Position numbers and translations under genes: made by a program. A stretch of DNA of 63,266 nucleotides from a virus. Lineage: Duplodnaviria > Caudoviricetes. How positions within the stretch are numbered: position 1 is the first letter of the stretch; the number at the start of each line of letters is the position of its first letter. A model generated the notes under the pieces. It saw nothing but the letters and a program-made list of their open reading frames with translations, did not search any database and was not told the origin of the DNA. Below are positions 16,160 through 44,475 of this stretch, in pieces. The DNA lies in the IMG/VR virus record IMGVR_UViG_3300045970_000244, positions 1 to 63,266 of that record. One strand, 5' to 3'.

Positions 16160-17116
16160 TTAGGACAGGAGGCCCTGCAGGAAGCAGCCGAGGTCGGTAG
16201 CGACGACTTTCTGGTCGAACGCCATCTCGCCCTCAACGCGATCTGCCTTCAGGTGTTCCATGCGGAACGTCATGATGCGGCCGCCCTGCGCGCCAGCTCC
16301 GAAGAGCCCCTGCCACGCGAACGTGTAGCCCGCTGAGGGCTGCATGATCGACGGTGCCGGGTTGGCATAGCAAAGCAGTGCGCAGTTCTTCACGAGGAAG
16401 TCCATGGATGCGGCTGCACCCTCGGCTGCCGAATCCTGAACGGCCTGCATGACGAGGAACTTGTCCACGCCAAACAGAGCTGCCAAGAGGTCCTCGGTGA
16501 TGATACCGCGCTGCGTGTACTTGATACGATCAAGCACGGCCGGGTTGTTCTTGAGCGCCTGAAACACGTCGTACGTGATCGCGAGCGTGTTCGGAGCGAA
16601 CCCCGTCTTGCTCTTGATCTCGGCCTTCTTGTTGTCGACGTCGAGCATCGGGTTTGAGCCCGAAGCACTCCACTTGGTCGAGGGCGTGAAGTCAGCGGCA
16701 CCATTCCAGAGGCCGGCTTTCACGTACTTCGACATGAACAGGATCTCCCTGCGGAGAAGCTGTTGCTGGGTGACAAACAACGTCGCGTCGCGATCCATGT
16801 TGAGTGGGTCGTCGGCGTTCTGACGAGTCTGATCGTCGATGTCCTTGTGCACCGCCCAGATGTCGCAGAAGTAGTTCCCGCCCGCGTCGACGCCGAACCC
16901 GCTGCCTGACGATTCACTGGCAGGGGCGCGTTTCTTCGACTGGGTCTGGAACCAATACTTCTTCTCGTACTGGAAGTACAAATCGGACTGTTTCATTACC
17001 GGCACAATCGGAAACACCTTGTCCGCGACAAAGTCTGCCGCTTTCTGGATGTAGGCGATGCTGATGTTGGTCAGCGGCCGGTTGACGTGGACATCACTTC
17101 TTGTAGGTTGTGGCAT
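16160..17116 (-). CDS. Major capsid protein
   Basis: HVNRPLTNISIAY.Q....FVADKVFP.VPV, RAPASES, PSAGYTF motifs; AGGAGG RBS. Confidence 0.9.
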   Translation of the reverse strand: MPQPTRSDVHVNRPLTNISIAYIQKAADFVADKVFPIVPVMKQSDLYFQYEKKYWFQTQSKKRAPASESSGSGFGVDAGGNYFCDIWAVHKDIDDQTRQNADDPLNMDRDATLFVTQQQLLRREILFMSKYVKAGLWNGAADFTPSTKWSASGSNPMLDVDNKKAEIKSKTGFAPNTLAITYDVFQALKNNPAVLDRIKYTQRGIITEDLLAALFGVDKFLVMQAVQDSAAEGAAASMDFLVKNCALLCYANPAPSIMQPSAGYTFAWQGLFGAGAQGGRIMTFRMEHLKADRVEGEMAFDQKVVATDLGCFLQGLLS

Positions 17117-17128
17117 CTGTCAGCCTCC

Positions 17129-17506
17129 TTATGCTTTCACGCCGTCACGGAGGAGCTTCACGGCAACAACGTCGCCAGAAACGCCCGCTTCGAGTGCGCG
17201 CGCATAGATATACGCGCCGGTTATGGCGACAATGAGCTTACCGTTGGCATCGCCCGAGAGCTGGTCATCGACCGCTACCGTGCCACCCAACAGCGCCTTG
17301 CTGACGCCTGATTCCATGATCTCCGCAGCTTCACCCGAGATGGGCTTGTTCTGCAGAATCCCATGTGCGCTTGCGCCGGCACCTGCCGACACGATCGACG
17401 GAACACCGCTCACCGCTGCCACTGTGACAGCCGTGAACTGCTTCGCCGAAAGGTCTGCACCTGCCGGGAGCACACCAAATTTACGGCCCGGAATTTCGTA
17501 AGCCAT
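17129..17506 (-). CDS. Capsid cement/decoration protein (DUF2190-like)
   Basis: AGADLSAKQF..V...GILQNKP..GEAA...ALEAG.SGD motif; directly before MCP. Confidence 0.8.
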   Translation of the reverse strand: MAYEIPGRKFGVLPAGADLSAKQFTAVTVAAVSGVPSIVSAGAGASAHGILQNKPISGEAAEIMESGVSKALLGGTVAVDDQLSGDANGKLIVAITGAYIYARALEAGVSGDVVAVKLLRDGVKA

Positions 17507-18708
17507 TAGATGCCTCCTTTACGGTTCTTCTGGTGTTCAGCGTACAGTTTGCGGCCTTCGTCAGAAGTGATGAAGTCCGTGTACGCCTGTTCTTTTGAGA
17601 TCGTTCCACCAGACTTCTTGACGATTCCGTCAACGGCGGCGTCGATCTTGCCCGAGATGTCAGCGCCGGCATTGCCAGTCTGATCCGAGCCAGTTTCCTC
17701 GAACAGCTTGCCCTTCTCGGCTTGCTTGTCCAAGGCTTCGAACTGTTTGCACACGCGGTCAAAATCCTCTTTACCGGCTTTGTCGGCCAGTTTCAGGGTC
17801 TTGACGAGCTCTGCTTTGTCCAGAGCGATGTGCTTGAATTCCTCAGCTTTCGCCACGATTTCTTTCTCGCGACCCGAGGCTTTGAGCTCGGTGATCTCTT
17901 TTTCCAGACTTGCGGCCTTGGTTACCGCTTCCATCTGGGTCTTGAAGATCGCTTCGACTTCAGGGCGGAGCTTCTCAGGAACCGCCGCGAGGTCGATGGT
18001 TCCATCAGACTTCATGATGATTCCCATATCTCCCTCCCCTTCTTTCTTTACAGGTTCAGTTGTTTTGCCGTCGGTCTTAGCAATCCGTGCCTCAGCGTCG
18101 GGATAACCCTTGCCTAGTTTCCGAACATGGGACTTGACGGCTTTCATGTAAGCGTCCATGCCTGCGGAATGAGCGGATTCCTTCTCCTCGTCCGACGCTT
18201 CGGGCAGTGAGCCCTCTACGCCAGCCTTGGAACCTTTGTCGACTTCCCCTTCGTCGCCCTCTTCTTCTTCTTCGTCTTCGGTGAGGCCGGCTTTGCCAGC
18301 GCCTTCCGTTCCGGGCTCGTCGTGGGGAGCGCCCTCGCTGATCCCGATGCTCTCAAGCACCTGATCGACGAGTTCGTCGGTAATTTCTTCTTTGAACGGG
18401 GCGAGAATACGCGCCACCGCTTTGAGGGCTGCCTGCGCCTGTGGGCTCAGGGCCGGGGCCGCTGCTGGGTTTGCTGCTGGCGCTCCGGCGGCCGGCGCTG
18501 GTTTCGTGGGGTCTACTGTGGGCATGGGAGCCTCCTTCGCTGTGGCAATGTAAGCCTTGAGAACAGCCTCAACCTTTGCCATTTGCTCGGGTGTGACGGA
18601 TTGAATGGCTTCGAGCGCCGACTTGAAGATGATGAACTTCTTCTTGTTCGCGCCTCGGGGCACCAAACTGACTTCGGCTGGTTCAAGACTGTGTAAACGT
18701 CGTATCAC
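17506..18708 (-). CDS. Scaffold protein with N-terminal EVSLV..GAN protease strand
   Basis: Acidic/coiled-coil body; N-terminus RRLHSLEPAEVSLVPRGANKKKF; many [IVL]xK motifs. Confidence 0.75.
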   Translation of the reverse strand: MIRRLHSLEPAEVSLVPRGANKKKFIIFKSALEAIQSVTPEQMAKVEAVLKAYIATAKEAPMPTVDPTKPAPAAGAPAANPAAAPALSPQAQAALKAVARILAPFKEEITDELVDQVLESIGISEGAPHDEPGTEGAGKAGLTEDEEEEEGDEGEVDKGSKAGVEGSLPEASDEEKESAHSAGMDAYMKAVKSHVRKLGKGYPDAEARIAKTDGKTTEPVKKEGEGDMGIIMKSDGTIDLAAVPEKLRPEVEAIFKTQMEAVTKAASLEKEITELKASGREKEIVAKAEEFKHIALDKAELVKTLKLADKAGKEDFDRVCKQFEALDKQAEKGKLFEETGSDQTGNAGADISGKIDAAVDGIVKKSGGTISKEQAYTDFITSDEGRKLYAEHQKNRKGGI

Positions 18709-18788: not shown

Positions 18789-21155
18789 CTAGGCAGGGTT
18801 TTGCCCATCACGAAGCCCAAACCCGCCCACACTGAACGCCTGATACTCGCCTTCGAGCACCTTTTGCCACTCTTTTGCGTCCTTGATTTTGATGCCCAGC
18901 ACCCACGATCCCTTCTTGATCTTCTGCGGCCCGTACTGCCCGCCTTCAAGCTCCATGTCGACCGGGGCGATGTAACTCTCAACAGGTTCGGCTTGTATCG
19001 CCCGCCCGTGCCCAGAGCCCACAACCCGCGATTTCTGCAAATATATGTGCGCTGCGCTCTCAATATCATCGGCAGACATCCAATCTTCTTGAGAGTCGAC
19101 CTCGTCGGGAGCGAGCACCACACCGTAGACGACTTGCTTGTGCTTGTCGGCCTTGATGATAGGGACCTGTCTCAAGTCTTTGGAATCTGCCTTCTTTACC
19201 GGCTTTGACCAGTGCGAAATATTGTACCGAAACCCACTGGAGGTCTTTCCCCCACTTATTCCTGCTTCACGCATGAGGGATTCGTGAACGTGCTTGGCTT
19301 GTGCGCTTGGGAGCCCAGAGGAAACACGCTTTGCCCCTTGCGCTGCCGCTGCCGAATACAACGAGCGGTACATCTCTTTACCGAGCCCTTTACCCTGAAA
19401 CTCATCCTCTAGATCCGTTTCCCCTATGTGGAGGGTGTCTCCGAGGACGATCCCATTCCCGATTCCAACCGTCTTCCCTTCTGAATCCTTTATTTTAACG
19501 CGAACCGCCGGGCTGTCGCGTTCGTCTTCCGAGAGGTCGAGCCCCAAATCTTTCCCGGTCAGATGCTCAACTTGCATTGTGGTTTTGGTTGCGTTGTCTT
19601 CAGTGTCCGTGGTCTCGCGCTCCCACTTGTCCCACGCCGCCTTGTGTTCGTCCTTGGCCTTCTGAAACTCGCGCCCGGTCTTCTCTTCGTGGGCCTGAGC
19701 CTCTTGATGAATCTCATGAACCCGCTGGTCGGTGGGGTTCTTGTCGGCCTCTTCTCGCGCGTTGCGTTCGGCGGTCTGAGCCTTGTGCCATTCGCGACGT
19801 GTTTCCTTCATTTTCTTTTGCGCTGAATCAACGACTTTCATGTGCGGGCTGAGCTCTCCCTTGCCCTTGCTCTCTCCACCGCCAGACCCGAATCGCCCTT
19901 TCTCGTCGCGCGACACCTTGCTCTCGTCCCAATCGCCGGCCTTGCTCACTGCCATGCCTGCGCTGCGGGAGTAAGGCTTGTCGCCTTCGAGCTTTGTTTG
20001 GTGATAGCGCACCTTCTGCTCAAGGGTCTGTCGGGCCTTCATCGCGGCCTTCATGTTGTTGTGGGCCTGCTCATCTTTCGGGTTCTTCTCGTAGGATTCG
20101 CGAGCCTTCTTCTCTTCTGAGTGGGCGTCCTTCAGGCTTGCTTGGGCCGTCATCAGGTGGTCGGCATGTGCCTCGCGTGGGGTCGAGTAGTGCTTGCCGC
20201 CAGATTCACCACCGCCAGAGCCAAAGCGTCCGCGCTCGTCGCGGGGATGTTTTGATTCTTCAAAGGATTCCTCTTTGCTCACGGCGTCGGTCCAGTACTC
20301 GCCCAGAGTTTCAAACGCGAGCTGCGCGTCTTCGGACAGCGGCTCCTTCTCGCTCACGCGCTCGAATATCTGCCGGTACACGAGCTTGGCGCCCTTGGCG
20401 ACTTGGCCCTCGTTGGTTTCGAACCACGTCATGACGAGTTCCTTGGGGTACTCGGTCAGTTCTTCCGGGCCCTCGTAAAGCATCTCGCCGCCGTCTTTGA
20501 GAACCCGGGCGATCTCTCCCAGAATCTCCTTCGGCTGAACGTTCTCCATGTCATGCAGGGCGTTGACTACGCGCACACCCTTGGCCACCCTCTCGGGGAA
20601 CGGGAGGCCCAAGCCGAGGTCATGGATCAGTGTCCCATGATCATACGGATAGATGTCGATGCCGATGTGTCCGGGCTCTCGGCAGGAGGAGCATCCGAGG
20701 TCAAGCATGAGCGATGGTTCGCTCTGCGCTTGCCGGACTTGGTCTTGCTCACCGCTGAAAGCCGCGTCCCCGCGCAAAATCTTGCCGTAGTGGTCGGCGT
20801 CGACGTCAAGGCGGGCCTTGGCCGTGATGCTGGCAACCATCGGGTCAATATTTCCGTTGGCGAACTCGTAATCGGTTCCTTCGATTCTCTGCTGCAAAGC
20901 GAGAACGTCAGCAAAAGCGTCGTCATCAACAATGCGGTCAGCCTTAGTAGCCTTGACAATCTTGTTCCTCTTCTTTCCGAGCGGTTGGTTTACGTGAACG
21001 TCAGAGCCGGCGGGCTGGGCCTTCTTGCACTTGGCGGCCTTTGCTTTGCCTCCAGCCGACGCGCGTGAAGCGCGAAAGAGCTGCGACATCATCCAGTCTG
21101 GTAGGTACGCTTTCGATTTCTTGTGCAGGGCCTCAAGGTATCCGGGTGTCGCCAT
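18789..21155 (-). CDS. Polyprotein: capsid-mimic peptide, SAM methyltransferase, two HPRDxxGRF-type modules, GNAT, C-terminal XkdF-type prohead protease
   Basis: LDLGC...LPFP...EIARVLKDGG (class I MTase); EFQGKGLGKEMY (acetyl-CoA motif A); VYGVVLAPDEVDSQED...IESAAH...ESYIAP...KKGSW...AFSVGG (XkdF). Confidence 0.85.
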   Translation of the reverse strand: MATPGYLEALHKKSKAYLPDWMMSQLFRASRASAGGKAKAAKCKKAQPAGSDVHVNQPLGKKRNKIVKATKADRIVDDDAFADVLALQQRIEGTDYEFANGNIDPMVASITAKARLDVDADHYGKILRGDAAFSGEQDQVRQAQSEPSLMLDLGCSSCREPGHIGIDIYPYDHGTLIHDLGLGLPFPERVAKGVRVVNALHDMENVQPKEILGEIARVLKDGGEMLYEGPEELTEYPKELVMTWFETNEGQVAKGAKLVYRQIFERVSEKEPLSEDAQLAFETLGEYWTDAVSKEESFEESKHPRDERGRFGSGGGESGGKHYSTPREAHADHLMTAQASLKDAHSEEKKARESYEKNPKDEQAHNNMKAAMKARQTLEQKVRYHQTKLEGDKPYSRSAGMAVSKAGDWDESKVSRDEKGRFGSGGGESKGKGELSPHMKVVDSAQKKMKETRREWHKAQTAERNAREEADKNPTDQRVHEIHQEAQAHEEKTGREFQKAKDEHKAAWDKWERETTDTEDNATKTTMQVEHLTGKDLGLDLSEDERDSPAVRVKIKDSEGKTVGIGNGIVLGDTLHIGETDLEDEFQGKGLGKEMYRSLYSAAAAQGAKRVSSGLPSAQAKHVHESLMREAGISGGKTSSGFRYNISHWSKPVKKADSKDLRQVPIIKADKHKQVVYGVVLAPDEVDSQEDWMSADDIESAAHIYLQKSRVVGSGHGRAIQAEPVESYIAPVDMELEGGQYGPQKIKKGSWVLGIKIKDAKEWQKVLEGEYQAFSVGGFGLRDGQNPA

Positions 21156-21157
21156 GT

Positions 21158-22123
21158 TTATTCTTCCTCGCTCTCTTCTGGTTGCGCGTCTTCCAGCCTC
21201 TGTGCTGAATTGCCAAAGTCAAGCTCCATGCCGCAAAAACAATGCGGGTGGCTCTCGGTTGGGACGTCAACTTGTTCTCCGTTCGGTAGTGTCCAAAATT
21301 CGTCCAAGGGCACCGCGACACCATCCATGGGTTCACAGATTTCGCACGGGGCTCCATCCACGATCCAGACCTTACGAGCGGTTCCCCGATCAATAAGGCT
21401 CTGGTCTGCGGCCTGCCGCCACACGGCTAGCTGCCCTTGGTTTGTGGCGAGTCTGGTTTCGGTGCGGGCGATCATCATGGCGCGGTACTGCAGCAGGTCG
21501 TCCATCTTCTTGGCGGCGTATGCCTGCTGGTTTGCGGCCGGGATGTCCTTACCCTGCATTCCCCGAACATAATTTTGGTACGCTGCTGTGAGCCGTGTTC
21601 CGAGGCCGATTGTGCCCTTGATCTCGGCTGCCACTTGGCGCGGCGTGAGGGCTTCGTTCATGGAGCGCGCGACCTGTTGCTGGATGAGTTCCTGTGTTGA
21701 TTTTTTTGCGTCGGTTATCCACTCGCCGGTGCGCTTGTCCACGAAGTTCCTGATGGACGGGTTCTTCATGTCGAACCGGAGCTCGTTCTTCACGGGAGGA
21801 GGCAACCTCTCCAAGCTGAATCCAGCCGCTGAGGTCAGCGTGCCCGCGAGAGTGCGGCGCGCGGGGCCCATGTCCTCGTGCATGTCGTCCCACGGGATGA
21901 TGGCCATGATCTTGCTTGGGTCGCCGGAAATCCAGAACTCTTCAATCTTCGCTGCGCTGACTCGTTTTTTGAACGTGCTGTATCCGTGAACGAGGTCCAC
22001 TCGGACGGCGCCGGCCATGTTTTTACTCAGGTTGGTCAGACGCGTGTACGTGCGGGTCTTGGCCCACTTGCTCTTTGGGGCTGCTTTGAGGATAGAGGTG
22101 CGTGGCTCAGAGTGAACCCACAT
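21158..22123 (-). CDS. MuF / SPP1 gp7-like minor head protein
   Basis: RAMMIARTETRLA.NQG, W......CEICEPMDG, HPHCFC; start re-set to ATG 22123 (TGATG overlap). Confidence 0.85.
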   Translation of the reverse strand: MWVHSEPRTSILKAAPKSKWAKTRTYTRLTNLSKNMAGAVRVDLVHGYSTFKKRVSAAKIEEFWISGDPSKIMAIIPWDDMHEDMGPARRTLAGTLTSAAGFSLERLPPPVKNELRFDMKNPSIRNFVDKRTGEWITDAKKSTQELIQQQVARSMNEALTPRQVAAEIKGTIGLGTRLTAAYQNYVRGMQGKDIPAANQQAYAAKKMDDLLQYRAMMIARTETRLATNQGQLAVWRQAADQSLIDRGTARKVWIVDGAPCEICEPMDGVAVPLDEFWTLPNGEQVDVPTESHPHCFCGMELDFGNSAQRLEDAQPEESEEE

Positions 22124-22422
22124 CACCATTGAACCTTTCCGTCGCGTACCCAGCCGTGGAACTTGCACTGGCTCTTGATCTCGCGGCCGTCAGCCAACTT
22201 GAGCGCGCCGGTACAGTCGATGATCGGCGAAACCGTCACCGTGGCGATGTCGTCAGATGACTTTGACCAGATTGCCCCGCTGCCAAACAACGACGGGGCC
22301 GTAAAGCTCACGGCGATAGAGTGCCCGCGCTCGCACACGGGGCAGTCGAACATGAGCACGTTGTCGGCGCGTTCAGCGAACTTGACGAACTGCCCTTTAA
22401 GCTCGCGGAGAGATTTTTCCAT
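22123..22422 (-). CDS. DUF6527-like Cys/His protein
   Basis: F.CPVC...H...W....TVSPII.....C.FHGWVRDG.V.W pattern; GAGGAGG RBS. Confidence 0.65.
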   Translation of the reverse strand: MEKSLRELKGQFVKFAERADNVLMFDCPVCERGHSIAVSFTAPSLFGSGAIWSKSSDDIATVTVSPIIDCTGALKLADGREIKSQCKFHGWVRDGKVQW

Positions 22423-22432
22423 GGCGTCCTCC

Positions 22433-23950
22433 TCAGACGTTCAGGGTCAGTTGCCGGGCCGCTGCTGCGCGCATGGCGGACTGTTGTTCCGTGTCACCTG
22501 TGGCGTTGGTCACTATCGGTGTCGCGGGCTGGCCGTTCACGGGAGTGGTGTCCCCTGAGTTTGCGCCTTGGGGCCGCTGTTTGTCGTCATACGGGATTTC
22601 AACCTGCTTGACGAACTCGTCGGTCGTCTTGCGCGGCGGTGCCACTACTTGGCTTACGGTGCGCAGAGGGTCGATCGGTTCCGGGAGCCCTGCAATCTTC
22701 ATCAGGTACTTCTCAAGCTCACCGTCAGTGGACGGGAACAGCGGATACCCGGCCGACGCCAACGACGAGATGTACGCGCCCAAGTCCTTCAGGTCGATGG
22801 TCTCAAGGTCGCCGTGCACGAGCGTTGGGTAGTCAGTCACCTCAAAGTCGTTCAACTCGAACAGACGCGGTATCGCAAACCGGTTGAACACGTCCGCGAT
22901 GATGTCGAGGAACGCGCCAATGGCCACACTGAACAGCTCGGTCTTGCTCGACTGGAGCGCGAACGAGCCCACGTTGCTGTGCCCGATCAGGATGAAGTCG
23001 GCCAGAGCCGTCATGGCGATGCGTTGGTCGTAACGCTGAATAATCTTGTCGGTGTCGAACTGACGTTGGCCGCCGGTGCTCAACAGCTTCAACTCATACA
23101 TCAGCTTGCCGTTGGTGTCGTAGGCCATGGGGAACACGATGCCCTCTTGTTCGTCGCGACGGATATTCGTGACGATCTCCTTCAGGTTCTGGAGGATCGC
23201 CTTCTGCCCGGCGTTCGCGCCGGATGACAGCAACTCAGGTGGAACCAGCGCCACGGGCAAGCCCGCAAGATCGCGCTCAATGCCGATGGCCTCGATGTTC
23301 TCGATGTTCTTCTTCATGTACCAAGGGCGGTACGCGCCACGCAGGATGCTGCGACCCTCGGGATTGTTCTTGTCGATGGCCGTGCGGAACAGGAGCATCT
23401 TCTCAATCGGGATCTCGGTCAGGTAGTAGTGCGGCGGGGCCAACTGCTGCACGCCCTTGATGCCGCCGTGATCGTCGAACAGCCAGCGGTAGATGGTGTC
23501 CTGTGAGCGGAGGGGAATCTTGCGCCAGCCAATGCGGCCGTCAGCGTGTTTTGACTTCATCCACCCGGGCCCGCTCTGCCCGCAGCGGCGCTTGTAAACG
23601 ATCTCGTGCGCGCTGTACCCGTACTGGAGCATGGTGAGGATTTCGCTAATCGTGTCGGTCCACGACTGCGACATATCGTTCATACAGCTTTCAAGAAAGT
23701 CCGCTGCCTCTTTGTCGTAAGGCTGCTCTGAGGCGGGCTTGGCTCGCCACTGAACTCCACGACAGAGCATGGTGATGGCGAACAGAACGGCGTTCACCGT
23801 GGGGTCGTTGTTGGCCATCTCTTTGTAGATGGCAACCCCTTTCCATCCGACTAATTCTCGAAGGAATTCCTCGTAGACGAACCCGGAGAACCTTTTGAGG
23901 CCGGAGGCTCCGACTTCTCTCATGTCAAGTATGCGAGTATCTTGTTCCAT
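22433..23950 (-). CDS. Portal protein (DUF935-like)
   Basis: YGYSAHEIVYK, NPEGRSILR.AY.PW, IGIERDL.G.P, IPRLFELN; follows terminase. Confidence 0.9.
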   Translation of the reverse strand: MEQDTRILDMREVGASGLKRFSGFVYEEFLRELVGWKGVAIYKEMANNDPTVNAVLFAITMLCRGVQWRAKPASEQPYDKEAADFLESCMNDMSQSWTDTISEILTMLQYGYSAHEIVYKRRCGQSGPGWMKSKHADGRIGWRKIPLRSQDTIYRWLFDDHGGIKGVQQLAPPHYYLTEIPIEKMLLFRTAIDKNNPEGRSILRGAYRPWYMKKNIENIEAIGIERDLAGLPVALVPPELLSSGANAGQKAILQNLKEIVTNIRRDEQEGIVFPMAYDTNGKLMYELKLLSTGGQRQFDTDKIIQRYDQRIAMTALADFILIGHSNVGSFALQSSKTELFSVAIGAFLDIIADVFNRFAIPRLFELNDFEVTDYPTLVHGDLETIDLKDLGAYISSLASAGYPLFPSTDGELEKYLMKIAGLPEPIDPLRTVSQVVAPPRKTTDEFVKQVEIPYDDKQRPQGANSGDTTPVNGQPATPIVTNATGDTEQQSAMRAAAARQLTLNV

Positions 23951-23964
23951 GCTTTTACGTTACC

Positions 23965-25464
23965 TCATCGCCATTTGCTCGGGCCAGTGAAACTTATCGG
24001 TGCCCAGTCTGTCGGCATCCCTTCGTTCAAACGTGTCAGGGCTTGCGACGTGCTGTCAATCTGGTCGTCGTGTGCGCCGTTGGGAAACACGGCCCACTCT
24101 TCAACGTAGTCATGAATCCACGGGGCAATGCTCGGGTCCGGCAGTATCACATTGCCGGCCTCTATGCTTGGCGTCACGGCTTGGGCTCGTGCGAGCTTGG
24201 CGCCACGGGGTCTGATGGGGATCATGCCGGGGATCTTGTTGCGGAGCGTGTCGATCATCGCAGCGCCGTTGGCGGCCTCTTCGACGAGCTTGGCGTGCGC
24301 GGCGGGCCACTTTGCCGTCAGCGTCATGATGGCCATGATGGTCTCGGTGAACGTGAGCCGGGCCCTCACCTGATCCAGCAGATATTTGTTCGCGCCGATC
24401 TTCCCCCAAACCTGCCCAACAACAAAGTCTGTTTGCGGGCCGTCTTTGAAGGTCAAATCCCACGACTGAATGATCTGGTCGAACGCGCTCGTGGCCGGGG
24501 CTTCGCGGTAGTACTTCCACCACCCGCGCTTGATTAAGGTGCCCTCCTCTGGTGACGGGCGCTGCTGGTAAAGCGAAGACCACACGCGCCGTGAGGCCGC
24601 TTTGATCTTGCCCATGTCCTCTAAGCTGAACACAGAGGGCCACAGGGGTTCGCCTATCTTGCGCGGGTCTTCGTCGTTGGAGTCGTCTTCCCTGATGGCT
24701 GGGAACGACAGCACCGTCCATTGGTCGGCCTGCGGGTCGTCCTTGGCGAGCTTGAGGAGCCGGCCGGCGAGGTCGTCTTCGTGCCAGCGGGTCATGGTGA
24801 GCAGGATTCGCGCGGGCGTGCCGTCAGCGGCGTCCTTCAGCCGGGTGCGGGCCGTGGACATGAACCAGTCAAACTGATGCTGCCGGAAGGTTTCGCTGGA
24901 CGCTTCCTTCATGTTTTTCACCGGGTCGTCGATGATGAACGTGTTGGCCGTCTTACCCGTGAGCGATCCGCCCACGCCCACGCTGTGATACTTGCCCTTT
25001 CGGTTGACGATCTCAAAGACCTCAGTGTTACGGGCCCAGTTGCTGTCGCGCCCATCCGAGAGCTTCACGTCCGGGAACAAGGCGCGGTACTTCTCGCTGT
25101 CGATGATGCGCTGTACGTCTCGGTTGAACTGCGCCGTGAACTGCCACCCGTACGACGCCGCGATGATGTTGTGGTCCGGGTCCTTCCCGAAGATGTACGC
25201 GGGCAGGTGCCGGCTCACCATCTGTGACTTACCGATCTGCGGCTGCAGGAAGATCATCAGCCGGGTAATCTCTCCCTTTACGAATCTCTCCAGATACCGC
25301 GCTATCAGCCTGTGATGCCAGTTGATCTTGAACTCGGGCATCGTGTACTTGGCGAACGATAGGAAGTTCTCGCGCCCGAACGAGGCGACCTTCTCACTGG
25401 TGAGGTCGTGCCACGTGGTGAGCTCGTTATTTCTGGTGTTCAATAACTCTGGGCTTGCTTCCAT
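23965..25464 (-). CDS. terL: Terminase large subunit
   Basis: Walker A PQIGKS, Walker B IIDDPVK, MTRWHEDDL, SWD, FPNGAHDDQID. Confidence 0.95.
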   Translation of the reverse strand: MEASPELLNTRNNELTTWHDLTSEKVASFGRENFLSFAKYTMPEFKINWHHRLIARYLERFVKGEITRLMIFLQPQIGKSQMVSRHLPAYIFGKDPDHNIIAASYGWQFTAQFNRDVQRIIDSEKYRALFPDVKLSDGRDSNWARNTEVFEIVNRKGKYHSVGVGGSLTGKTANTFIIDDPVKNMKEASSETFRQHQFDWFMSTARTRLKDAADGTPARILLTMTRWHEDDLAGRLLKLAKDDPQADQWTVLSFPAIREDDSNDEDPRKIGEPLWPSVFSLEDMGKIKAASRRVWSSLYQQRPSPEEGTLIKRGWWKYYREAPATSAFDQIIQSWDLTFKDGPQTDFVVGQVWGKIGANKYLLDQVRARLTFTETIMAIMTLTAKWPAAHAKLVEEAANGAAMIDTLRNKIPGMIPIRPRGAKLARAQAVTPSIEAGNVILPDPSIAPWIHDYVEEWAVFPNGAHDDQIDSTSQALTRLNEGMPTDWAPISFTGPSKWR

Positions 25465-38987: not shown

Positions 38988-39602
38988 ATGGAAGCCATAA
39001 AAGCAGAGAAAATCAAAATCGTGCCCCTGAAAGACCTCAAACCCAACCCGTTGAACCGCAACAAGCACCCGCCCGAGCAAATCGTCAGACTTATAGAGAT
39101 AATTCGCTACCAAGGGTTCCGCAACCCCATCGTCGTGAGCAACCGTTCCGGCTTGGTCGTGACTGGCCACGGTCGTCTGGAAGCCGCTAGGGCCATGGGT
39201 CTTGAGCGAGTGCCGGTGATTTTTCAGGACTACGAGGACGAGGATCAGGAGTACGCCCACGCCATCAGCGACAACGCCATCAGCATGTGGGCCGAGCTGG
39301 ACACAGCCGGAATCAACGAAGACCTCGCGCGCATGGGCCGCGAGTTCAGCCTTGAGCAGCTTGGTATGCGCAGTTTTACACAGGAGATCCCCGGGATGCC
39401 CGGCGGCGGCCACTCAGAGCTCCGCGACGACCTTCCGAATGTTGACATCCAAGGGTCCGTGAACAACCGCACTGAAATTTTGGTCATCACGTTTGCCGAC
39501 CCCGAAAAATACGCTGAGGTGCAACGCCAGTTGGGGCTCCGGCCCACACAACGCACCATCACCTATACCGAAATCGTCGACAAGTGGGAGCTGCCGACAT
39601 GA
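38988..39602 (+). CDS. ParB/Srx N-terminal domain protein (modification island)
   Basis: LKPNPLN.NKH..EQI..L...I...GF.NPIVV...VVTGHGRLEAA..MG...VPV...DN. Confidence 0.9.
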   Translation: MEAIKAEKIKIVPLKDLKPNPLNRNKHPPEQIVRLIEIIRYQGFRNPIVVSNRSGLVVTGHGRLEAARAMGLERVPVIFQDYEDEDQEYAHAISDNAISMWAELDTAGINEDLARMGREFSLEQLGMRSFTQEIPGMPGGGHSELRDDLPNVDIQGSVNNRTEILVITFADPEKYAEVQRQLGLRPTQRTITYTEIVDKWELPT

Positions 39603-40864
39603 GCGAGTACATGAGCCCGCGTTGGAGCGGTGAGGTAAGCGATTGCTCCATGCCTATGACTTTCGATACTTACGACCGCTGCACCTACGGGTGCCTGTAC
39701 TGCTTTGCGGTTTACCAGAAAATCAACAGCAAGGGCCCGAACTACTGGCTTGAGCAGCCTGACTTCGTGAACCCCGAACGCATCAAGGCGATGTTCCGGC
39801 TTGAAAAACCCACACAGTTCGAGAAGTACATCCGCGACCGGATGACCATGCAGTGGGGCGGCATGGCTGACCAGTTCGACGAGAACGAGCGCGAGCACGG
39901 CGTCACGCTGGAGCTCCTGAAGTTCTTCCGGGAGATCAAGTACCCGATCTGTTTTTCGACCAAGGCGACGTGGTTCACCAAGGACGACCGCTACATGTCG
40001 CTCATCAAGGACGCCGACCACTTCAACTTCAAGTTCAGTATTATCAACCTCGACCCGGTGCGGGCCGCCGTCATGGAGGAGCGCGTGGATTCCCCACAGG
40101 AACGCCTCGCGGCCATGAAGCGCCTGAACGACATCAACCCCAAGGGAGGCGTCACCCTCAGACTGCGGCCGTTCATCATCGGCCACACTGACCGGCGCGA
40201 CGAGTACCTTGACCTGATCCGTGCGGCGCACGCCTCTGGCGCGTCGGCCGTGACTACGGAGTTCTACTGTGTTGAGGCCCGACTGAAACCCTCTGAGCGG
40301 TGGCGCTACAACCGTGTGTCCGAGCTCTGCGGGTTCGACGTGTTCGAGTTCTACCAGAAGCACAGCACCGGCTCCGGCTACATGAGGCTCAATTATGAAG
40401 TCAAGAGGCCTTACGTCGACAAGATGAAGGCCCTCTGCGACCAACTCGGGATGCGCTTTTACGTCAGCGATGCCCACCACAAAGAGAAGTGCTCGAACGG
40501 CTCCTGCTGTGGCCTTCCTCCGTCATGGAATTACTCACGAGGCCAGTTCACCGAGGCCCTGCTGATCGCCAAAGAGAAGGGAACCGTGCGCTGGTCTGAC
40601 ATCAGCGGCAAGATGGACCACCTCAAGCAGATCAATTACGCCCGGGCCGAGGGCTTCAATACGGCGAACGTCATGAACCGAGCCACGCGCGGCCGGCAAA
40701 CCCTGTACGATTATTTGCAAGAAATCTGGAACACGCCGAACAACCTGAAGTCACCGTACAAGTACTTCGGCGGAATCATGAACCCAACGGGCACGGACGA
40801 AAATGGCGACGTGATTTACGAGTACCGGCCTAAGCCCTGTCCTTCATCAACTCAGCCAGAATAA
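39599..40864 (+). CDS. Radical SAM enzyme (thymidine-hypermodification isomerase-like)
   Basis: CTYGCLYC (CxxxCxxC); extra CSNGSCCG cluster; ATGA-coupled to ParB gene. Confidence 0.85.
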   Translation: MSEYMSPRWSGEVSDCSMPMTFDTYDRCTYGCLYCFAVYQKINSKGPNYWLEQPDFVNPERIKAMFRLEKPTQFEKYIRDRMTMQWGGMADQFDENEREHGVTLELLKFFREIKYPICFSTKATWFTKDDRYMSLIKDADHFNFKFSIINLDPVRAAVMEERVDSPQERLAAMKRLNDINPKGGVTLRLRPFIIGHTDRRDEYLDLIRAAHASGASAVTTEFYCVEARLKPSERWRYNRVSELCGFDVFEFYQKHSTGSGYMRLNYEVKRPYVDKMKALCDQLGMRFYVSDAHHKEKCSNGSCCGLPPSWNYSRGQFTEALLIAKEKGTVRWSDISGKMDHLKQINYARAEGFNTANVMNRATRGRQTLYDYLQEIWNTPNNLKSPYKYFGGIMNPTGTDENGDVIYEYRPKPCPSSTQPE

Positions 40865-41384
40865 ACCCCGCCGCGTTACTGATGTCCGCCTGACACTCGT
40901 TGGTGAGCTGGTGGACGTCTTCAGGGTTCAAGTTTTTCTTGATGTTGGAGATCTTCGTTTTGCGCCCCTTGAGAAAGGTTTCGGTCTGGGTATCGTTCCG
41001 GGCTTTGTGGCGCGCGGCTTTGGTTTCTTCCGTGCACTCCAACACGAACACCTTGATATCCAGTCTTTCGGCACACCAGCTTAGAAAGCTCAGATTGCCG
41101 AGCCGGTCTCCTTCAAAGAAGATGTTCCACTCGCGCGAATTGAATATGAGCTGGTCGATGTAGAGCTGCACCTGCGGCTGGGCCGCCATGCTGAACTTGT
41201 CCGTGCCGCAAAACGTGTCGCCGTCGTTGTAGAACCCGAGAACGATGATCTTCTCGTCCATGTGTTTCGTTCCGTGAACCAAGCCGCTCTTGAAGGGCAT
41301 CCCGGGCGATAACCGGCGCATCATCTCGCGTACGATGGTTGTTTTACCGGAGGCGGGCTCACCAATCATAGCAACAATTTTCAT
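40830..41384 (-). CDS. P-loop kinase, putative 5-hydroxymethyluracil-DNA kinase
   Basis: GEPASGKTT Walker A; LG.Y....F.GTD..SM..QP, FEGDRL, R...R.D.Q...FL.GR.TK motifs; adjacent to transferase. Confidence 0.75.
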   Translation of the reverse strand: MKIVAMIGEPASGKTTIVREMMRRLSPGMPFKSGLVHGTKHMDEKIIVLGFYNDGDTFCGTDKFSMAAQPQVQLYIDQLIFNSREWNIFFEGDRLGNLSFLSWCAERLDIKVFVLECTEETKAARHKARNDTQTETFLKGRKTKISNIKKNLNPEDVHQLTNECQADISNAAGFILAELMKDRA

Positions 41385-42520
41385 GTGTCAATCTCCTTGT
41401 TGAAGTCGTTTTCAAAACAGGGCCAGTCCCGGTGCATCATGATGACTTGCCCGGTCAGGCGATAGTGGTTCTGTTTGCGTGGGACCAAACCCGGGTCGCG
41501 CGGGTTGTCCTCAATCCGAAGGTGCGGCGGTAAGTACCAGCGGCGCGCGTCCCAGAACAGGCTGAAGTCCTCAGCGCCGGCCCAAGCCTCCTCGGCGGTC
41601 TTTATCCGGTTGTAAAACATGTCCATGTAGACGTTCGGGTACCGGCGGTTTTCGCGGTGCCAGCTCTTGTAACAGCACAGGGTTGATTCCAGCGTGAAGT
41701 ACCCGACGTCGCGCTCATCGATGTCCGGGTTGCCGGTCAGGCGCATTCGCGCGGCGTTCAGGAGCAGGTGCCCCTCGGCCTTGAGCCAGTCGATGATCTC
41801 TTTGTTGTAACCACGGAAGGCCGGATTCAGCGTGTCGTGCCAGTCGAGGTCGTCGCGGCCGTTGACCTTACACAGCCCGTTACGGTGAGACTTTGAGCCG
41901 TCGATGTCGTCCAGAAAGAGTTGGTCGCAGTCGATGTTCAGGCCCATGATGCGCAAGTACTCAAGATAGGAAAACGTCGAGAGCCGGCCGAACAACTCGA
42001 ACCCCATGACGTGCCGCCACACACGGCGGAAGTTCTCGTCCTCGTCGGCGGTGTTTGCGAGCTCGCCCTCGAATAATTCTGTTTGACTTTTGCCGCGCAA
42101 GTTCAGCTTGTAGCTCATCACACACTTCTCAAATTGGTTCTTGACATAGCGGCGGTCAGTGTCCCACCCGAGCTTTGGGTAATTCTCACGGAACCAGCGC
42201 GAGAGCTTGTCGATGTTCAGCACCTTGAAGTCAGGGAACCGCTTGAAGATCGTCCAAGTGGTGACGGCGTGCTGGCACAGCCCGTTGATGTACGCGAACC
42301 AGTACCGCTGCTCCTTGTCGAGTTTCTGCGTCTCCACGATGTACGGCATCATCTGGTACACGGCGCCCGGGTGAGATCGGTACTTCAGGTGGAACTCGTA
42401 AAAACGTAAGAACGTCTCTCTTCGGTACTCTGGGAGGCGAAAGTCCATCCCCTTCTCAAGTTCCGTGACCTCGTGCGGGGCGCCACGTCCGGCGCTGTGA
42501 GGGCTACTTTGGTTGAACAT
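41381..42520 (-). CDS. Amino acid:DNA transferase (aG/PT-pyrophosphorylase clade 2 family)
   Basis: DFRLPEYRRE.F..FY.FHLKY.SHPG.VY, WDTDRRY, FGRLSTFSYLEYL, GSKSHRNGL, FTLESTLC.YKSWHR..RRYPNVY. Confidence 0.85.
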   Translation of the reverse strand: MFNQSSPHSAGRGAPHEVTELEKGMDFRLPEYRRETFLRFYEFHLKYRSHPGAVYQMMPYIVETQKLDKEQRYWFAYINGLCQHAVTTWTIFKRFPDFKVLNIDKLSRWFRENYPKLGWDTDRRYVKNQFEKCVMSYKLNLRGKSQTELFEGELANTADEDENFRRVWRHVMGFELFGRLSTFSYLEYLRIMGLNIDCDQLFLDDIDGSKSHRNGLCKVNGRDDLDWHDTLNPAFRGYNKEIIDWLKAEGHLLLNAARMRLTGNPDIDERDVGYFTLESTLCCYKSWHRENRRYPNVYMDMFYNRIKTAEEAWAGAEDFSLFWDARRWYLPPHLRIEDNPRDPGLVPRKQNHYRLTGQVIMMHRDWPCFENDFNKEIDT

Positions 42521-43601
42521 ATTCGTTGATCCTCGTAGGGAAGGCACCAAGCCTCGGAGCAAGCAGGGCACGCATGTTCTCGGCGCGGGGTTTGGACCCG
42601 ACGATCCAGAACACGCTTTTGTGGTTGAGGAGGGCCGGAAGTTTTTCGCAGACGTAGGTCATCATTTTGCCTTCATACGTCGGGTGAAACTCGATCCCCT
42701 TGTAGGAAAACGGCACCTCGGTCTGGTAGTCGACGTACCCAGTGGTGTGCAGGTCATGGTGGATCAGCTCGTAAAGGGGCTCGTCCACGGTGGCTTCATA
42801 CTCAGATTGCACGTCAGGGTGTGAAATATAGTCGCGCTTGAACAGCCGGGTCGGGAGGCCCGCCACCCGCGAGATGATCTCAAGGCGCTCCTCGATCAAC
42901 TGGAGCTTGGGCGGCCCGATGCCGATCAGGTACACGCGTTTCAGGTTCTTCGGCCGAAAGCGCGCGAGCCCGTAAAGAATGCTCACCGTCGAATTGCATG
43001 AGCCAGACGGGATGACCAGAGTTTCCATGTCGTCAGGCAGGTTACGAACCTGTTCAGAACCAATGAAGTGAAACCGCTCGATCCGCCCGCCCGGGTGGCT
43101 ATGGTGGTCAAGTGTGATGCCGTACTCAAGGTAAAAGTATTGTGAGAGCTCGGGGTCGGTTTCCTTGAGGTCGCGCACCTTCTTTTGCAGAACGGGGTTG
43201 TAGGCGATGTTCGGGTTGATGGCAAACCGGGCTCCGAACCACGTGGCCATGGCGACGTTCTCGTGCCGGATGGCGGCGTCGGTGTTCGTGGCGCCGATGA
43301 CGTGCAAGCTCTTGAGCCCATAGTGTGCCGCGATTGCCGAGCCCATCGGGAGCTGCGGTGACTTCACGGAGGTGCCGGAGATCATTCCCACGGCGCCGGG
43401 CTCCTTCAGGTACTCGGTCACGAGCCAGATACACTGCCGTAACTTGCTGCCGTTGATGCCGCCGTAGCCCAGAGGAGCGAATTTGTCCTCCCGCTTGAAT
43501 CGGAGGTTGCCAACCCCTTCAACCGGAGTGAGGTCGAAAATACGCTCCTCCCAGCGGGATTCTGAGCGATCAAGACTGAGTGTCTGGAAGATTGTTTCCA
43601 C
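42504..43601 (-). CDS. Fold-type II PLP-dependent enzyme (putative DNA amino-acid decarboxylase)
   Basis: TPVE...FKRED.F...GGINGSKLRQ (PLP Lys), PSGSCNS, HPTYEGK, FWIVG; start re-set to GTG 43601. Confidence 0.85.
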   Translation of the reverse strand: METIFQTLSLDRSESRWEERIFDLTPVEGVGNLRFKREDKFAPLGYGGINGSKLRQCIWLVTEYLKEPGAVGMISGTSVKSPQLPMGSAIAAHYGLKSLHVIGATNTDAAIRHENVAMATWFGARFAINPNIAYNPVLQKKVRDLKETDPELSQYFYLEYGITLDHHSHPGGRIERFHFIGSEQVRNLPDDMETLVIPSGSCNSTVSILYGLARFRPKNLKRVYLIGIGPPKLQLIEERLEIISRVAGLPTRLFKRDYISHPDVQSEYEATVDEPLYELIHHDLHTTGYVDYQTEVPFSYKGIEFHPTYEGKMMTYVCEKLPALLNHKSVFWIVGSKPRAENMRALLAPRLGAFPTRINEYVQPK

Positions 43602-44475
43602 ACTTCTCCCAAAGAGGATCGCCGGTTTTGCGGCGCTTGGCTTGCTCAAGCTCCTCTTGCGCAGATTTGCAGCGAATCATGGCCTCGCGATAGTAGTAAA
43701 CGATAGTACAGCGTTGGGCGTCGGGCGTGAGCGGTACGATCTGCGTGTTGCCGTGCCACTCGTGAGGGTCGAACAACAGGAGGTCATAAGTGTCGAGCTT
43801 GACGGCAATTCGCCAGTTGGGCAGCACGAGGTCACCGCCCTTGTAAGCGCCCTGCCTGATGGCCGAGATGCAACTGAACCCTTGGGCGAGGTCACCGGCG
43901 TCTTTGTGGCAAGCCGTTCTGAAGTTCTTGTTCACCGTCATGGTGGTGAAGGCCGTGTCAGGAATCAAGAAGTCAGGGGCCGTCCGCCGTGCGTAGTCCT
44001 TCTGGTACTCGTACCGGTCGGGAACGTGCTCGGCAAAGAGGCGGTCTACCTGTTTGACCATCGGCATCAGGGCGTTGAACTTCTCCGGGTGCTGAAGGTT
44101 CCAAGCACAGGCCCGGCAGTAAGGCATCCTGACGGTGCGCTCAAAATAACCGATGATTCCAGAGTACACGCCCCAACCCTTCGGCACGCGCTGGGTCTGC
44201 GACCGGGTGCCGTCTTTGCGCATCCGGCCCTCGCTCTCAATGCCGGCGGCCGTGCCACGGTTGTCGGAGTTCTCGTAGTACCCGTGAAGCACAGACCATG
44301 CGTTCTGAACCAGCAGCGGTGAGAGGGCTTGTTTCAGGAGTACGGCCAGAGGCGAACCATCGGGGCGCTCGACGCGCGTGGTTTCAGTGAGCAGGACGTC
44401 GTAGTCCCGCTCGTCCACGAACCTCATTCCCCAATCTTCGCTATTGGGCTTTGACGGTAGCCTTATGAGCTTCAC
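43570..44475 (-). CDS. TET/JBP-family 2-oxoglutarate/Fe(II) dioxygenase
   Basis: FTT.TVNKNFRTACHKDAGD (HxD), DPHEWHGNT (distal His), R.TIV.Y.RE (2OG Arg); SGIIGYFER...PYCR. Confidence 0.9.
   Translation of the reverse strand: MKLIRLPSKPNSEDWGMRFVDERDYDVLLTETTRVERPDGSPLAVLLKQALSPLLVQNAWSVLHGYYENSDNRGTAAGIESEGRMRKDGTRSQTQRVPKGWGVYSGIIGYFERTVRMPYCRACAWNLQHPEKFNALMPMVKQVDRLFAEHVPDRYEYQKDYARRTAPDFLIPDTAFTTMTVNKNFRTACHKDAGDLAQGFSCISAIRQGAYKGGDLVLPNWRIAVKLDTYDLLLFDPHEWHGNTQIVPLTPDAQRCTIVYYYREAMIRCKSAQEELEQAKRRKTGDPLWEKCGNNLPDTQS

Follow-up and report, generated by a model that had tools for sequence, protein, structure and literature searches.

Polyvalent proteins of phages, as described by Iyer et al. 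(2017, PMC5512222), bring several disparate activities together in one polypeptide, with an 'assemblin-like peptidase always at the C terminus', and some of those that are packaged, such as the virion RNA polymerase of N4, stay uncut. A later paper from the same group calls XkdF 'unrelated' to SH peptidases (PMC7824862). T4 packages non-essential enzymes into its scaffold core; the head protease cuts them and they are injected, and capsid-targeting leaders are present on the internal proteins and on Alt (PMC9958956). We analyzed IMG/VR record IMGVR_UViG_3300045970_000244, a sequence of 63,266 nucleotides from a virus of the Caudoviricetes (Duplodnaviria), referred to below, over its whole length, as the window. 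An open reading frame on its minus strand (18789..21155), open over 788 residues and confirmed as real, encodes a polyvalent cargo-protease polyprotein (P0001) that combines a methyltransferase-like domain, a GNAT acetyltransferase and a C-terminal XkdF-type prohead protease, as identified by Pfam, AlphaFold2 and Foldseek. It is a protein of the kind already described by Iyer et al.: unrelated enzymes share one head-module chain with a C-terminal peptidase, relatives carry GNAT, NUDIX, ParB-like, 2H and ART cargo, and a role in packaging and early delivery is predicted, as in PMC5512222. Its protease, however, is incomplete, and the missing piece is encoded by the neighbouring scaffold gene.

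In PF14550 (XkdF/Peptidase_S78_2), a hairpin of the form [IV]S[LY]V..GAN..F...K and a scaffold part belong to the protease chain. Both are absent from the polyprotein, which ends just after the protease serine, and both are located on the next gene, a point that an earlier, sequence-only reading of this DNA had not raised. This gene (17506-18708, minus strand) encodes an acidic and helical scaffold protein of 400 residues, and it opens with the missing protease piece, the hairpin EVSLV..GAN (scaffold residues 1-29, EVSLVPRGANKKKFIIFK; 18622..18708, minus strand). The hairpin is conserved downstream of the protease: the following gene starts M..L.DL..EVSLV..GANKKKF...K(S) in 43 of 80 metagenome loci, the other 37 of which were not inspected singly and many of which end at a contig edge. 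In ten of 12 displayed family proteins the chain terminates no more than about 15 residues from FSVGG and in the other two at about 16; past its core motif, the protease continues for 55-63 residues in the closest loci and for 55-90 in almost all of them. Positions L5, S14, V16, A20 and K29 of the scaffold hairpin are invariant in 31 aligned sequences.

To model the two parts together, polyprotein residues 640-788 and scaffold residues 1-60 were submitted, both as alignments, to complex prediction. The pair obtained a score of 0.77, whereas none of three controls exceeded 0.01. Of the solved complexes, 116 of 157 attained the mark applied to this score, as did 2 of 215 mismatched pairs. Runs shared no fewer than 75% of contacts, and the partner had a predicted local distance difference test score (pLDDT) of at least 52. 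Scaffold residues 1-19 lay against protease residues 711-717 and 769-786, and the contacts of lowest error were between scaffold residues 12-14 and, on the protease, residues 711-713 and 774-777, beside Ser775. The model supports docking of the scaffold hairpin on the protease core.

The canonical single-chain XkdF proteins (PF14550, PHROG 3017; Lactococcus phage 28201 gp33, Bacillus and Paenibacillus prophages) share with the polyprotein the protease core, at 36-47% identity, the hairpin motif and the position in the head module. They differ in that hairpin, protease and scaffold form one chain of 289-424 residues without cargo; relative to them, the protease has moved onto the cargo protein and the hairpin has stayed on the scaffold gene. 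In 44 distinct single-chain forms from Bacillota prophages and Lactococcus phages, H[IV]S[LY]V..GAN stands at the protein's own N-terminus, giving the order hairpin-protease-scaffold. HK97 gp4 (Pfam S78) has another order, in which GMSVGF, the serine motif, is followed after 27 residues by EISVCTFPAN; in the window, about 25 residues separate Ser775 from scaffold Glu12. Since serine motif and E[IV]S..xxxAN strand follow each other in gp4 in the same order and at the same spacing, the arrangement on two genes is collinear with that of a one-chain protease, and the Bacillota chain represents a permuted version. HK97 gp4 is itself a single chain without cargo, and its sequence similarity to the XkdF family is non-significant. 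Two single-chain XkdF protease-scaffold genes, those of Lactococcus phage 28201 (L174) and Rhizobium phage RHph_TM16 (L173), are recorded as 'DNA methyltransferase' or 'DNA methyltransferase/prohead protease', and PHROG 1530 bears the same name. They were considered as methyltransferase fusions and rejected, as neither sequence shows a methyltransferase part and both are ordinary single-chain XkdF proteins; judged from the sequences, the label is probably a propagated misannotation.

The protease itself is readily recognized. PF14550 scored 97.9 bits against a cut-off of 24 (E 5.5e-28), polyprotein residues 666-779 matching profile positions 5-121 of 126. H703, H716, S775, D687, D691 and E726-S727 are invariant or nearly so in 61 family sequences, and H703 and S775 are the predicted, conserved catalytic candidates. 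The sequence of the domain found nothing in the PDB at E<=1. The fold was compared on a relative in cis form (L102), 45% identical to the query in the protease, whose model matched T4 gp21 (5jbl_A) with Z 9.5 and a root-mean-square deviation of 2.3 Å over 115 residues; the next-ranked rows were helical-hairpin matches with Z 8.8 and below. XkdF-type enzymes therefore have the gp21/assemblin fold. T4 differs from the present system in that its protease is one chain and each cargo protein has a gene of its own and a short leader.

Sixty relatives of the polyprotein were recovered from 5.8 billion proteins. What they share is limited to the C-terminal protease, some 15% of the query, and in most cases also the methyltransferase-like core; everything else varies. 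Precomputed Pfam labels for this cargo include NUDIX, Methyltransf_11, ParB-like, histidine phosphatase, 2H phosphoesterase, ADP-ribosyltransferase, LPD1 and DUF6582. On sequence comparison this is a metagenomic family with variable cargo on a conserved methyltransferase-like domain and a C-terminal protease. Open reading frame, domains and gene order thus agree with the fusion of cargo to a head-module protease that the sequence-only reading had proposed, and the family swaps its enzymatic cargo on a constant protease.

Residues 46-59 of the polyprotein (20979..21020, minus strand), preceded by K45, mimic the N-terminus of the major capsid protein (MPQPTRSDVHVNRPL; 17072..17116, minus strand), with 10 of 14 residues identical to capsid residues 2-15; the resemblance to the capsid had been seen in the earlier reading and is real. 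No other open reading frame in the window joins the S.VHV core to the flanking Q-P and P-L residues, and the bare pattern [SAT].[VI]H[VIM] has two further matches there. Of 61 family proteins, 36 have the strict motif K-x-x-P-x-x-S-x-V-H-V, N-terminally or after an N-terminal cargo domain. In 36 of 39 instances of the core a lysine stands six residues before the serine, and the residue two before that lysine is V, I or L in 33 of these 36, against a background of 18%. The capsid N-terminus, M[PSAT]QPTRSDVHVN[RK]PLTNIS, is almost invariant, its conservation far exceeding that of the remaining protein. Of the capsid protein's 120 best relatives (63-75% overall identity), 115 have the motif serine as their seventh residue; 115 of the 120, too, have the initiator methionine at the position of the mimic's conserved lysine, followed by P, S, A or T as second residue. 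Methionine aminopeptidase removes the initiator methionine before such second residues. A cut after the mimic lysine would therefore expose the register of the mature capsid N-terminus. The capsid protein of a distant relative (L018) carries a seven-residue extension, MTQVINK, ending in I-N-K, before the shared N-terminal motif. The capsid family is very large and uncultured, with 6656 proteins at E<=1e-10 among 8000 scored; its only solved relative is the prophage protein 3bjq (E 1.7e-17), aligned from residue 26.

An AlphaFold2 model of the polyprotein, built on 61 family sequences (mean pLDDT 76), resolved six well-folded blocks with low-confidence linkers between them. All lie on the minus strand. 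An N-terminal helical leader (residues 5-33; 21057..21143) consists of two helices with pLDDT 80-85; a leader-like pattern occurs in 8 of 61 family proteins, in some cases internally. A disordered linker (residues 36-75) holding the capsid-like peptide leads to a helical bundle and a class I S-adenosylmethionine (SAM) methyltransferase-like Rossmann domain (residues 78-299; 20259..20924; pLDDT mostly >90). After the linker at residues 298-324 comes helical hairpin 1 (residues 326-390; 19986..20180), two long helices with pLDDT of about 95, and after the linker at residues 392-433 comes helical hairpin 2 (residues 437-523; 19587..19847). The mini-GNAT acetyltransferase (residues 526-631; 19263..19580), an alpha/beta domain identified by PF00583 and Foldseek, is separated by a disordered linker (residues 632-660) from the XkdF-type protease core without its hairpin (residues 662-779; 18819..19172). 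Pfam and the protein atlas gave no family match for hairpin 1; the atlas gave no feature matches for residues 285-530, where its structure rows were generic helical hairpins with TM <0.36, and an NCBIfam scan returned only noise. Pfam, AlphaFold2 and Foldseek together upheld the domain order given by the sequence-only reading (capsid-like peptide, methyltransferase, two HPR modules with their hairpins, GNAT, protease), and the structure prediction that it had proposed as a check yielded this same series. On whether catalytic residues are degenerate, the outcome was divided: the protease candidates and the GNAT motif are intact, and the glycine loop of the methyltransferase-like domain is atypical.

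The two HPR motifs, (F/W)(E/D)ESK(H/V)(P/S)RDE.GRFGSGGGES, both fall within disordered linkers, with a long helical hairpin after each, so that sequence and model agree with the paired modules described earlier. Motif 1 (residues 298-318; 20202..20264, minus strand) is preceded by V-S-K294 and is disordered in the model; motif 2 (residues 409-429; 19869..19931, minus strand) is a VSR variant with V-S-K405 in front of it. Searching with residues 290-435 brought up 11 further proteins, bearing ADP-ribosyltransferase, ART-PolyVal, DRAT or MuF domains. In 9 of the 11 the motif is repeated one to four times at domain-sized intervals, mostly after hydrophobic-x-Lys, and ART/MuF polyvalent proteins have it 3-4 times per chain. 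It is thus a general mark between the domains of polyvalent proteins, a kind of punctuation. Neither Pfam, NCBIfam nor the protein atlas yielded a family model for it. In the searched parts of PMC5512222, 'XkdF' and 'hpr' each have 0 occurrences, and those parts are without a scaffold-split protease, a capsid mimic or a constant class I SAM methyltransferase-like core. Literature on XkdF, PF14550 and capsid targeting yielded no paper on the split or the mimic, the supplementary architecture lists of PMC5512222, which may hold the architecture, being outside the scope of this search. Within the same scope, no paper was found to describe the scaffold-completed protease, the capsid N-terminus copied in register behind a conserved lysine, or the punctuation by HPR motifs.

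Lysines recur at several of these junctions. The earlier reading had placed seven [IV]xK sites at or near module boundaries; four of them fit this, K68, K405 and K655 lying in low-confidence linkers and K294 at a helix end beside a linker, and three do not, as set out below. Together with K45, the three linker lysines K68, K405 and K655 fall where pLDDT is <50, and [VI]-x-K precedes all 12 HPR motifs in protease-bearing relatives. In the scaffold protein, [VIL]xK occurs at 19 sites against 8.1 +/- 2.4 in shuffled sequences, a count reached by 0 of 2000 shuffles; 31 scaffolds together have 477 such sites against 207 +/- 13. An [ILM]-x-K lies within the first 16 residues of 14 of 16 listed capsid proteins from phages with the single-chain form, and within the first 11 in nine. 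One further candidate, IQK25|A in the capsid protein of the window, was rejected because the lysine is not conserved in relatives. T4 gp21 follows the rule L/I-x-E, with glutamate as P1, whereas lysine is the P1 proposed for the polyprotein family; the HK97 capsid protein is cut at K103|S104, that is, after a lysine. Cleavage at hydrophobic-x-Lys, and the choice of sites, are thus suggested by sequence patterns and by analogy.

We favour, at a probability of roughly 60%, the view that the polyprotein is a phage polyvalent head-cargo protein that is hooked to the scaffold and cut at lysines, and whose enzymes are delivered. Of this, the analysis shows the gene with the folds of its domains, how the family is built, that the division over two genes is conserved and in which register the mimic stands, and the model supports docking of the hairpin. 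Because the adjacent scaffold gene encodes the last strand of the protease, the enzymes probably enter the capsid as cargo and are released there by cleavage. With the protease core stopping after candidate Ser775 and the hairpin opening the scaffold gene, the hairpin would insert beside the Ser775 strand, hook the polyprotein to the scaffold and hence bring it into the procapsid, and perhaps complete the enzyme. In the procapsid, the protease would cut after hydrophobic-x-Lys in disordered linkers, with K45, K68, K294, K405 and K655 as candidates, and would also degrade the scaffold, rich in lysine sites. As T4 Alt, the T4 internal proteins and other polyvalent proteins suggest by analogy, the freed enzymes would remain in the head, exit with the DNA and act early in the next host. 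Self-cleavage, presence in the virion and injection are proposed on such analogies, and the targets of the enzymes are likewise presumed.

Several observations weigh against this reading. The polyprotein contains 13 [VILM]xK sites against 13.8 +/- 3.2 in shuffles, a chance-level count that led us to reject [IV]xK as a self-evident code by number; only 4 of the 13 are in disordered residues, which make up 20% of the protein, and K192, K254 and K668, three of the seven sites of the earlier reading, lie within folded domains. The counts over 31 scaffolds come from related sequences that are not independent, and the scaffold enrichment could stem from amphipathic helical periodicity. The HPR motif bears its own hydrophobic-x-Lys in ART and MuF polyvalent proteins without an in-chain protease, and therefore the HPR lysine belongs to the motif and is no proof of a cut; the idea that this lysine is specific to protease-bearing proteins is weakened by the same proteins. 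The mimic is disordered in the model and does not dock in cis (pLDDT 37-43, residues 40-70). Since a one-chain structure of the fold has been solved (T4 gp21), the pass in complex prediction may partly be the model's memory of it. Profile-profile comparison with HK97 gp4 was non-significant for the family alignment (E 0.5) and for the scaffold alignment (E 0.38), the latter falling on gp4 residues 140-164, the expected strand. In 50,697 cultured-phage records, identity in the protease to a close relative reaches about 41% at most and the cargo fusion is absent; the 48 records that matched did so in the protease part only, all at <60% identity. In the methyltransferase-like domain, Methyltransf_11 scored 16.7 bits, under its cut-off of 21.2, and the SAM loop reads G-C-S, with serine in place of the second glycine of motif I.

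The chance-level count of lysine sites, the atypical motif I and the sub-threshold Pfam score would all suit an internal head or scaffold-core protein that is never processed, in which the enzyme-like domains serve as bulk, are degenerate or moonlight, and the protease acts only on scaffold and capsid; the uncut N4 virion RNA polymerase (PMC5512222) is a precedent. We consider this unlikely, as the GNAT domain keeps every invariant residue of its family, the methyltransferase-like core is strongly conserved across 61 proteins, and linkers with a conserved hydrophobic-x-Lys lie between all well-folded modules. We attach a similarly low probability to cargo that acts on the phage head, the methyltransferase-like domain (with the GNAT) modifying capsid or scaffold in the procapsid, the mimic being a docking site or pseudo-substrate, and no injection being needed. 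Such a role would account for the joint presence of methyltransferase-like core and mimic in a family whose other cargo varies, for a capsid N-terminus far more conserved than the rest of the protein and of the same length before the serine in 115 of 120 relatives, and for a mimic lysine exactly at the position of the capsid methionine. It sits poorly with the NUDIX, 2H, ART and ParB-like cargo, which are typical host-directed or anti-defence activities of polyvalent proteins (PMC5512222). Moreover, no contact is predicted between the mimic and the methyltransferase-like domain, the model having such low confidence over residues 40-70; the nearest methyltransferase folds are RNA and small-molecule enzymes, and the SAM loop of the query is atypical.

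The split itself might be a frameshift or an assembly error in a single cargo-protease-scaffold gene: the two open reading frames are adjacent, in different frames with a gap of 80 bases, and read as one they keep the collinear order of single-chain proteases, HK97 gp4 among them. This is very improbable. The same boundary recurs in 38 distinct scaffold genes with the hairpin at their N-termini, found on independent contigs and each with its own start codon, 10 of the 12 displayed family proteins end at the place described above, and stand-alone short proteases of 126-229 residues share the same split layout. Returning to the head-cargo reading, we tentatively suggest a two-part address system, which we hold to be possible but rather doubtful. 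One part would be a split protease gated by assembly, to which the scaffold donates the last hairpin, so that entry and activity occur only when it is scaffold-bound; the other would be neo-N-terminal tags, in that a cut behind the conserved lysine bares a residue-for-residue, in-register copy of the mature capsid N-terminus and cuts at other places bare an HPR tag. If this were true, the tags would put freed cargo on the capsid N-arm sites of the scaffold or inner shell, and the copy number and position of the cargo would be fixed for later ejection. Polyvalent proteins are predicted to be a major phage route for anti-defence and takeover enzymes. The present family offers a concrete route, with a docking point (hairpin against protease core), a candidate cut rule (hydrophobic-x-Lys) and two tags (the capsid copy and HPR). 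If correct, it would explain cargo loading in a large uncultured phage group, whose capsid family alone has >6,600 relatives at E<=1e-10, and would offer an easy means of putting foreign proteins into capsids of this kind.

The mini-GNAT and the methyltransferase-like domain are ordinary in kind. The GNAT passed PF00583 marginally, scoring 22.1 bits where the cut-off is 20.7. When residues 526-662 were searched exhaustively with HMMER, 75 cluster representatives came up at E<=1e-3, the majority 500-3300 residues long; all 30 that were scanned match PF00583, often in several copies, and relatives carry it beside NUDIX, PBECR5, ParB_N, mCpol or kinase-like domains. Aligned with ten short relatives, the domain keeps every invariant residue, including the acetyl-CoA loop QGKGxGKxMY (QGKGLGKEMY in the query). 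Foldseek with the polyprotein model matched it to GNA1 (E 3.4e-5) and aminoglycoside acetyltransferases, and its sequence gave weak, non-significant matches in the PDB (E 0.3-1.7). By these comparisons it belongs to the mini-GNAT family typical of polyvalent proteins. Among the GNAT relatives, the large multi-GNAT proteins P0185, P0191 and P0198 begin with an mCpol (minimal CRISPR polymerase) domain, and further GNAT-repeat proteins add PBECR5, VTC or PI3/PI4-kinase-like domains, which are unusual polyvalent architectures.

For the methyltransferase-like domain, Foldseek found the SAM methyltransferases Bud23 (E 3.7e-6), Trm11, type-11 methyltransferases and METTL6, and the family profile matched 16 methyltransferases in the PDB (best E 9.5e-5). 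Two relatives passed the Methyltransf_11 cut-off, P0004 (24.7 bits) and P0013 (22.5 bits). Motif I reads DLGCSS in the query versus DLGSG in the family; in the 61 sequences the second glycine of the loop is glycine in 48 and serine in five. D167 is kept, and position 188 is E versus D in 41 of 61. The modelled structure establishes a methyltransferase fold, and we refer to the Rossmann domain as methyltransferase-like, its methyltransferase activity being putative.

The polyprotein gene lies among the genes for the virion head. The head module is Mu-like and reads, in minus-strand order, large terminase TerL (23965-25464), Mu-type portal Portal_Mu (22433-23950), a small DUF6527 protein identified by Pfam between the portal and MuF genes (22123-22422), a MuF-like head morphogenesis protein (21158-22168), the polyprotein, the scaffold, a 125-residue protein (phrog_673, minus strand) between scaffold and capsid genes, and the major capsid protein (16160-17116; phrog_1005, E 4e-87). 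The polyprotein gene is thus placed between MuF and the scaffold and capsid genes, and downstream of the head module follow neck, tail and baseplate genes (tail terminator, DUF3383, a Dit-like protein and baseplate hub). The scaffold protein has no Pfam family and no PDB match at E<=1. Its open reading frame contains a methionine, Met43, at 18580-18582, 14 residues after the hairpin. In scaffold genes (loci L019-L096), a methionine lies within 15 residues after the hairpin in 18 of 31, at +6 to +8 in 13 of them. From its position, this methionine may be a conserved internal start that gives a major scaffold form without the hairpin.

The sequence-only reading had also suggested that the GNAT and the methyltransferase further modify an amine-bearing base in the phage DNA. 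This idea found no specific support: the methyltransferase-like domain is constant across the polyprotein family, and the GNAT comes from the mini-GNAT family typical of polyvalent proteins. There is, though, a DNA hypermodification cluster elsewhere in the window (39584-44475). It comprises a TET/JBP dioxygenase (43570-44475, minus strand), an amino-acid:DNA transferase (41381-42571, minus strand), P-loop nucleotide kinase 3 (40830-41384, minus strand) and a radical SAM protein (39584-40864, plus strand), and suggests a hypermodified pyrimidine in the phage DNA.

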